Source of the DNA: Escherichia coli
Lineage (GTDB): Bacteria; Pseudomonadota; Gammaproteobacteria; Enterobacterales; Enterobacteriaceae
NCBI RefSeq assembly: GCF_003334815.1
Contig: NZ_QOWO01000007.1
Strand: one strand, 5' to 3'
DNA length: 64,000 nt
How positions within the stretch are numbered: position 1 is the stretch's first letter; every line of letters begins with the position of its first letter. Below are positions 34,591 through 34,801 of this stretch, piece by piece. The notes beneath the pieces were generated by a model. That model saw only the letters and a list, made by a program, of their open reading frames with translations, had not been told where the DNA came from and searched no databases. Made by a program: the position numbers and the translations under genes.

Positions 34591-34801
34591 GATTCTTCGC
34601 CTTTGGTTTGTTTTCCGCTCGTTATCAAAGCGTAAAATATAATGACCACCATTCGAATCTGTATGCAAACTAAATGTTTGTCAAATGTTAAATTGAGTTT
34701 GCAAAAATGAAAACCCACTGCTAGATTGAAAAAATATTGAACATAAAGGTCATTTAAAGCGCAGTAATGGCGATAATTTAGTCCACTTTGTGAGATTGAG
34801 C

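Follow-up and report, generated by a model that had tools for sequence, protein, structure and literature searches.

How is transcription controlled between the divergently oriented genes puuA and puuD of Escherichia coli, and where in the DNA between them does the local repressor PuuR act? We considered these questions in a stretch of 64,000 nucleotides (hereafter the window; NCBI RefSeq assembly GCF_003334815.1, contig NZ_QOWO01000007.1), in which the start codon of puuA on the complementary strand and the ATG of puuD (34802-34804) delimit 34591-34801 as exactly the intergenic spacer, of 211 bp. A preliminary description of this DNA had given the same limits and called the spacer AT-rich, as is borne out by a GC content of 34.1% against 51.4% for the window. 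It had further proposed that the spacer holds multiple PuuR sites in the form of several similar AT-rich blocks, of which it quoted two; both strings are indeed present, at 34672-34697 (block 1) and 34738-34756 (block 2). Our analysis suggests, with a probability that we put at about 85%, that the spacer serves two back-to-back promoters of the sigma-70 type as a common control region, with PuuR boxes and an ArcA site. Thus, the idea of a divergent puuA/puuD region with several PuuR boxes and an adjacent puuR gene holds up, but the quoted blocks are the wrong ones.

Identification of the PuuR boxes

A repeat finder run with no prior motif recovered three direct copies of a 15-mer, namely AAAATATAATGACCA (34634-48), AAAAAATATTGAACA (34729-43) and AAAATATAATGAACA (34806-20), the third of which lies inside puuD and beyond the interval covered by the preliminary description. 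The copies fall within three occurrences of a 20-bp imperfect palindrome with a consensus of about ATGGaCAATATATTGaaCA, which we term boxes S1, S2 and S3; a weaker, inverted copy is termed S4 (Table 1). A search of the 64 kb with a 15-mer of the PuuR box as query found only the three box copies at up to two mismatches, and at up to three mismatches it found seven matches against 2.1 expected, a count reached by one of 100 shuffles.

In addition, a position weight matrix was built only from the orthologous sites of species other than Escherichia. Its consensus, ATGGACAATATATTGAACAG, forms an imperfect palindrome, with stronger conservation in the right half than in the left. When both strands of the window were scanned with this matrix (127,962 positions), the three highest scores were those of S3, S2 and S1, in that order. 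For S1 and S3, reading the same 20 bp on the opposite strand again yields 16-17 bits, which points to the dyad symmetry expected for a helix-turn-helix dimer. Between 34560 and 34850, S4 is the only further position that scores above 3 bits. The matrix was built without S4; at its register, scores of 9.9-15.1 bits are nevertheless reached in 35 of 41 species, with the opposite strand scoring best. On these grounds we regard S4 as a weaker, inverted box and a candidate for the fourth; the block ATAATTTAGTCCA there is conserved in the alignment. Four PuuR DNA-binding motifs have been reported in the spacer, according to the account of Nemoto et al. 2012 given in PMC9951944, and S4 may correspond to the fourth of them.

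The pairwise similarity of 20-mers within the spacer of the window (16 of 20 positions) is only marginally above the maximum of 15 in the shuffle null, and in the single spacers of most other species it does not exceed the null. Hence, the case for the boxes rests on the matrix scan, the conservation across species and the spacing. Full-text literature searches with the box sequences and with the name PuuR box returned no match. Elsewhere in the window, a box-like 20-mer, ACGTTAACAATAATGACCAG, is seen at 28254-28273 (plus strand; 16.3 bits, sixth in the list for the window) within the coding sequence of sapB, which RefSeq annotates as a putrescine-export ATP-binding cassette permease; this match may be due to chance. 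Another, AAGGAGTAAATAATGAACAA at 4344-4363 (minus strand; 16.7 bits), consists of the ribosome-binding site and ATG of yciN, and is apparently a chance resemblance to an AT-rich translation start.

Conservation and spacing across species

A single scan of species-representative genomes with PuuD yielded 79 loci. The divergent arrangement of puuA and puuD is kept in 40 loci of Enterobacterales, spanning Escherichia, Klebsiella, Raoultella, Citrobacter, Cedecea, Buttiauxella, Pluralibacter, Franconibacter, Hafnia and Serratia; puuR directly follows puuD in 38 of these, and the other two loci end earlier. Outside Serratia the spacer measures 205-222 bp, mostly 211-213 bp, and in Serratia 236-239 bp, except for S. 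rubidaea with 218 bp. Counts given below out of 41 spacers cover the range from Escherichia to Serratia and Hafnia. An alignment of the spacers displays five conserved islands (34632-49, 34663-34705, 34718-43, 34773-87 and 34790-34822) in a poorly conserved background. The comparison of related puu spacers for shared motifs, which the preliminary description had recommended, thus does yield a repeated element, the 20-bp box, by matrix and alignment in up to 41 spacers.

S1 and S2 are found at the same aligned positions in all 41 spacers, and all four box positions recur in up to 41. Furthermore, the distances between them are nearly rigid: S1 and S2 are 95 bp apart in 36 of the 41 spacers, S2 and S4 are separated by 41-42 bp, and S4 and S3 by 34-35 bp. 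By comparison, S1 lies anywhere from 54 to 89 bp from the puuA ATG. Only one larger indel interrupts the array of boxes: in Buttiauxella, 10 bp are duplicated in tandem beyond S2, and S2 and S4 are 51 bp apart. In Buttiauxella sp. A111 this duplication, ATATTGAACG followed by ATATTGAGCA, lies just after the equivalent of 34744 and lengthens the distance from 41 to 51 bp, one helical turn, with the other spacings kept. A further observation concerns eight Serratia loci, which carry about 25 extra bases between the puuA ATG and S1; these contain a right-half box, TTTATTGACCAT, for which S. oryzae and Serratia sp. H1w score 5.5 bits and the other Serratia remain under the 5-bit listing threshold. 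In S. oryzae, Serratia sp. H1w, S. rubidaea and S. silvae the puuD -35 region is also overlain by a box-like match of 10-16 bits, which corresponds to 34694 of the window.

The preliminary description had placed the PuuR sites in the spacer. This is true of S1, S2 and S4, and S3 occupies codons 1-7 of puuD, so the expectation that the sites map to the spacer fails in part. The coding sequence bears the imprint of this box: relative to codons 8-50, codons 2-7 of puuD show higher conservation at third positions (0.85 versus 0.68) but lower conservation of the encoded amino acids (0.72 versus 0.92), a pattern that points to constraint at the level of DNA. The N-termini of PuuD across species read MENIMNN, MENIMYK, MGNIFDK or MGNIFNR, and the rare isoleucine codon ATA within codons 2-7 is invariant in 41 of 41 spacers; an operator placed in codons 1-7 would force its use.

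The association of box and repressor extends to distant lineages. In the loci of Halotalea, Carnimonas and Kiloniella, which keep a puuR homologue nearby, the best and palindromic matches to the matrix are located in their own puuA-puuD spacers. Three scanned loci from Pseudomonas and unclassified gammaproteobacteria gave nothing above 6.2 bits, and no puuR homologue is present within their fetched flanks.

The ArcA site and the quoted AT-rich blocks

The second conserved island of the alignment, 34663-34705 (ATGCAAAC...TTTGCAAA), matches exactly a published ArcA site of four direct repeats with 11-bp centre-to-centre spacing, which is listed as ATGCAAACTAAATGTTTGTCAAATGTTAAATTGAGTTTGCAAA at 1359005-1359047 in the supplementary material of Park et al. 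2013 (PMC3798270) and which was derived by a motif search in regions bound by ArcA in chromatin immunoprecipitation (ChIP). Within it, 34674-91 is an exact match to the 18-bp ArcA box atgtttgtcaaatgttaa, reported in the same study at 14 bits together with an ArcA ChIP peak at puuD/puuA. Deletion of arcA derepressed puuA 15.3-fold and puuDR 10.6-fold, and the anaerobic occupancy of the locus by sigma-70 was found to be reduced (Park et al. 2013, PMC3798270). Most of the 40 distinct spacers retain the core of the site, TGTTTGTCAAATGTTA, from which Serratia and Hafnia diverge by a few bases (TGTTTTGCAAGTGTTA).

This identification bears directly on the proposal that the AT-rich blocks themselves are the PuuR sites. 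Both blocks do lie inside the spacer in which PuuR reportedly binds four motifs; block 1 shows strong conservation, 34676-90 within it agrees in reverse complement with the 15-mer consensus at 10 of 15 positions by manual count, and block 2 overlaps the 3' end of S2. However, block 1 falls inside the ArcA site and contains the predicted -35 hexamer of puuA, and no position in it scores above 3 bits with the box matrix; we accordingly rejected it as a PuuR box. The first 6-7 nucleotides of block 2 do belong to S2, but past TGAACAT the block is not conserved and represents filler that differs in other species. Moreover, the two blocks are unlike each other: contrary to the similarity asserted for them, their best ungapped match on either strand covers 8 positions, against a shuffle mean of 9.8. 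We thus regard it as improbable that these blocks are what PuuR recognizes.

Two further features of this segment deserve mention. The repeat finder reported an inverted repeat, TGCAAACTAAAT and ATTGAGTTTGCA, at 34664-75 and 34692-703, which largely reflects the mirror-image layout of the region, its right arm carrying the TTGCA of the puuD -35 and its left arm the matching TGCAA beside the core promoter of puuA. In E. coli E69 a C-to-A change at the equivalent of 34682 turns the predicted puuA -35 TTGACA into TTTACA; it likewise modifies the segment separating the second ArcA repeat (centre 34677) from the third (centre 34688).

Promoters and transcription starts

The start of puuD transcription is fixed by two independent sources. 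In Park et al. 2013 (Table S6) the ArcA site extends from -70 to -28 relative to the puuD start, which puts that start at 34733, and the transcription start site sequencing (TSS-seq) of Kim 2012 gives 1359076, equivalent to 34734 of the window, with a published 51-mer that matches the window exactly. The mapped start lies 7 nucleotides past TAGATT, the -10 hexamer. Among the 40 distinct spacers, conservation is at least 95% for CTGCTAG and at least 80% for the ATT that follows it, with TAAGTT or TAATTT in Cedecea and two Enterobacter; the block CTGCTAGATT at this promoter is at least 80% conserved at every position. When each spacer was rated with a simple sigma-70 score, TTGCAA-17-TGcTAGATT was the top or near-top promoter on the plus strand in all 41.

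On the minus strand, the position of the best-scoring promoter is likewise fixed in 41 of 41 spacers. Its -10 hexamer varies by genus (CAGATT, CACATT, CAGAGT, CATTGT, TAAATT, TATGTT and others), with the A at position 2 and the T at position 6 always kept, and the distances between the promoter elements are invariant in all 41 spacers. From this fixed position and the two kept bases we predict that puuA is transcribed from TTGACA-17-CAGATT, with a start near 34649 and a leader of about 59 nucleotides.

Two other promoter-like elements were considered and rejected. A scan with the consensus promoter picked up TTGTGA-16-TATAAT (34788-34815, plus strand), which would start transcription inside puuD; one such match was found against 1.2 expected in the region, and it probably arises from the TATAAT core of S3. 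It is limited to 11 spacers of a group extending from Escherichia to Enterobacter RIT418 and including Klebsiella, Raoultella and Huaxiibacter. The island at 34773-87 was examined as a second -10 of puuD with its own start; it has no usable -35 and no mapped start, and it fits the register of a box. The TSS-seq of Kim 2012 also reports two starts inside puuD that are assigned to puuR, 1359392 and 1359691 (35050 and 35349 of the window, plus strand). Should these be genuine, puuR might have a further route of transcription that does not depend on the PuuR-controlled puuD promoter.

The puuD leader

S4 and S3 are both conserved and lie within the transcribed leader and the beginning of the coding sequence of puuD, and they could in principle act as RNA, that is as a leader structure or as a target of a small RNA or the ribosome, rather than as DNA operators. 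Against this, the puuD leaders of 15 species have a consensus energy of -0.38 kcal/mol with no compensatory pairs and no consensus structure, the leader of the window folded alone gives z = 0.08, and the two blocks fit, without any shift in register, the DNA palindrome that S1 and S2 share. A scan against Rfam found no family at threshold, its only match having E = 0.54 and falling under the gathering score. A role of these blocks in RNA is hence highly improbable. That the repeats are simply a chance product of AT-rich promoter DNA, where TATAAT-like cores recur, and serve no specific repressor can be dismissed as scarcely credible: the similarity of 20-mers within single species is at or near the shuffle null and the TATAAT in the box core was picked up by a promoter scan, but the boxes are the top three matrix matches among about 128,000 positions, share position, register and spacing across about 40 species, impose synonymous-site constraint down to a rare ATA codon, co-occur with puuR in distant lineages and lie in a spacer to which PuuR binding has been published.

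A model for the shared control region

Together these observations suggest the following arrangement. Transcription of puuD-puuR proceeds rightwards from TTGCAA and, 17 bp on, TGcTAGATT, and that of puuA is predicted to proceed leftwards from TTGACA (34684 to 34679) and, again 17 bp on, CAGATT (34661 to 34656). PuuR, which combines an XRE helix-turn-helix with a cupin domain, is presumably a dimer and would bind 20-bp imperfect palindromes with the halves ATGGaCAATA and TATTGaaCA. S2 would then cover the -10 and the start of puuD, S1 the first 20 nucleotides past the predicted puuA start, S3 the start codon of puuD and S4 its leader. On these boxes PuuR could block the binding or escape of RNA polymerase by steric occlusion. 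Putrescine, bound to the cupin domain, would release the repressor; dissociation of PuuR on direct sensing of putrescine has been described (Nemoto et al. 2012, as related in PMC9951944 and PMC7901475). Since puuR sits in the puuD operon (puuDR is listed as an operon in Park et al. 2013), the system would be negatively autoregulated. ArcA-P on its four direct repeats, spaced by 11 bp, would cover both -35 hexamers and keep both promoters off without oxygen, as is suggested by the published ArcA data in combination with the predicted puuA promoter.

The spacing of the boxes would place S1, S2 and S4 on one face of the helix, where 95 bp make about 9.0 turns and 41-42 bp make about 4.0. Such phasing would fit a higher-order PuuR complex or DNA loop containing the two promoters together with the ArcA array, with S3 as an extra anchor or roadblock, a possibility that we consider doubtful. 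The loop draws weak, heterologous support from the 36-fold repression by PuuR of the full puuD promoter, as opposed to 6.9-fold for a truncated one (PMC9951944).

Several points weigh against the arrangement as a whole or against parts of it. The correspondence of our four boxes to the regions footprinted in Nemoto et al. 2012 is presumptive. S4 is weak in E. coli, at 5.8 bits, and about 0.2 matches of this strength are expected by chance per region of 290 bp. No mapped start of puuA is available from the two data sets consulted, Park et al. 2013 giving "no TSS" and the table of Kim 2012 having no entry. A minor alternative promoter for puuA, TTGCAT-18-CATTAT, lies inside S1; its score is lower, and in some spacers it drops out of the top matches. 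The published rpoS dependence of puuA and puuD implies that the promoters may not be purely of the sigma-70 type. Lastly, control by FNR has been reported in the literature, and no FNR site (TTGAT-N4-ATCAA, up to two mismatches) occurs in 34591-34801, the window as a whole containing 40 such matches against 32.9 expected, which is at chance level. The reported FNR input is thus left unexplained by the sequence of the spacer, and the effect may be indirect.

Table 1. Features of the puuA-puuD control region and the adjacent repressor gene, in window coordinates (strand not assigned for the palindromic boxes)
Feature	Position	Strand	Remarks
puuA start codon	34588..34590	-	RefSeq annotation of identical K-12-type record; gene extends leftwards to 33172
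PuuR box S1, GCGTAAAATATAATGACCAC	34630..34649		20.1 bits, third best in window; 16.7 bits on other strand; 41/41 spacers; about +1 to +20 of predicted puuA transcript
Predicted puuA -10, CAGATT	34656..34661	-	Best minus-strand sigma-70 match; same aligned position in 41/41 spacers
ArcA-P operator, four direct repeats centred at 34666, 34677, 34688, 34699	34663..34705	+	String identical to Park et al. 2013, Table S4; overlaps both -35 hexamers (that of puuA predicted)
Predicted puuA -35, TTGACA	34679..34684	-	17 bp from -10; inside ArcA site
puuD -35, TTGCAA	34699..34704	+	17 bp upstream of -10; position fits mapped start
puuD extended -10, TGcTAGATT	34719..34727	+	TAGATT at 34722-27; -12 to -7 of mapped start
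PuuR box S2, ATTGAAAAAATATTGAACAT	34725..34744		24.8 bits, second best in window; 41/41 spacers; -9 to +11 of puuD promoter
puuD transcription start	34733..34734	+	Park et al. 2013, Kim 2012; leader of 68 nucleotides
Candidate PuuR box S4, ATGGCGATAATTTAGTCCAC	34767..34786		Weaker, inverted; 5.8 bits, rank 46 of 127,962; +34 to +53, in puuD leader
puuD ribosome-binding site, GAGA	34792..34795	+	From alignment; 6 nucleotides before ATG; GAGG in most species
PuuR box S3, ATGGAAAATATAATGAACAA	34802..34821		26.8 bits forward, 16.2 bits reverse, best in window; puuD codons 1-7; +69 to +88 of puuD transcript
puuR, XRE helix-turn-helix and cupin repressor	35593..36150	+	Downstream of puuD; RefSeq annotation; NCBIfam NF007408 equivalog

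Gene neighborhood and distribution

Several complete E. coli chromosomes, that of a K-12-type strain among them, match the 801 bases around the spacer with 100% identity. In the RefSeq annotation of the identical records the gene order is sapA, ymjA, puuP, ymjE and puuA on the minus strand, followed by puuD, puuR, puuC, puuB and puuE on the plus strand. The translation of puuA begins METNIVEV. The product of puuR scores 385.5 bits against the NCBIfam PuuR equivalog NF007408, for which the cut-off is 211, and PuuD matches its own NCBIfam equivalog. A short open reading frame of the YmjE family (54 amino acids; 32859-33023, minus strand) is situated between puuA and puuP and overlaps the start of puuP by 11 nucleotides. 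For that start Kim 2012 gives 1357357, equivalent to 33015 of the window, with a 51-mer that is found on neither strand of the window. By megablast the region is present in 4372 of 5426 complete E. coli genomes; about one fifth are without the puuA-puuD region at this sensitivity, and six of the matches are on records labelled as plasmids.

Relationship to known systems

The region is the published puuA-puuD control region of E. coli and is as such already known; the above findings are refinements with little discovery value. The predicted puuA promoter, the phased and rigid spacing of the boxes, the imprint of S3 on the codons and the assignment of S4 may go beyond the literature accessible to us, and they may already be contained in Nemoto et al. 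2012. The locus is of some use as a calibration case: blocks of AT-rich DNA that look like repeats turn out to be the operator of another factor and unconserved filler, and the truly repeated operator is shorter, dyad-symmetric and partly in coding sequence. Putrescine biosensors based on PuuR could make use of the predicted puuA promoter, the rigid box spacing and the operator in puuD codons 1-7, all of which are conserved across the 41 spacers.

The closest comparison is with the puuA-puuD operator of E. coli K-12 (Nemoto et al. 2012, J Bacteriol 194:3437), which has the same locus, the same sequence and the adjacent repressor gene; there is no difference in kind, and the published K-12 strings match the window exactly. 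RegulonDB holds the operons regulated by PuuR and a PuuR matrix. There is no solved structure of PuuR itself, and only relatives with the XRE helix-turn-helix, such as 1Y9Q, are available. With regard to ArcA, the 43-bp site of the window is itself listed, with its 11-bp spacing, among the ArcA-P operators with multiple direct repeats (Park et al. 2013, PLoS Genet 9:e1003839, Table S4), where one of the four repeats is strong, at 11.7 bits against 1.4-2.7 for the others. What would set it apart is that the array spans two divergent -35 hexamers, a feature that rests in part on the predicted puuA promoter. A more distant parallel is offered by the XRE-cupin repressors of Pseudomonas, PauR, PsdR and their relatives (Trouillon et al. 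2021, PMC7901475), which share the same two domains and are likewise local catabolic repressors released by metabolites; PauR has been described as a homologue of PuuR (PMC7901475). These systems differ in belonging to other organisms and in using other operator sequences; the Pseudomonas loci fetched here have no puuR-like gene in their flanks and no box above 6.2 bits.

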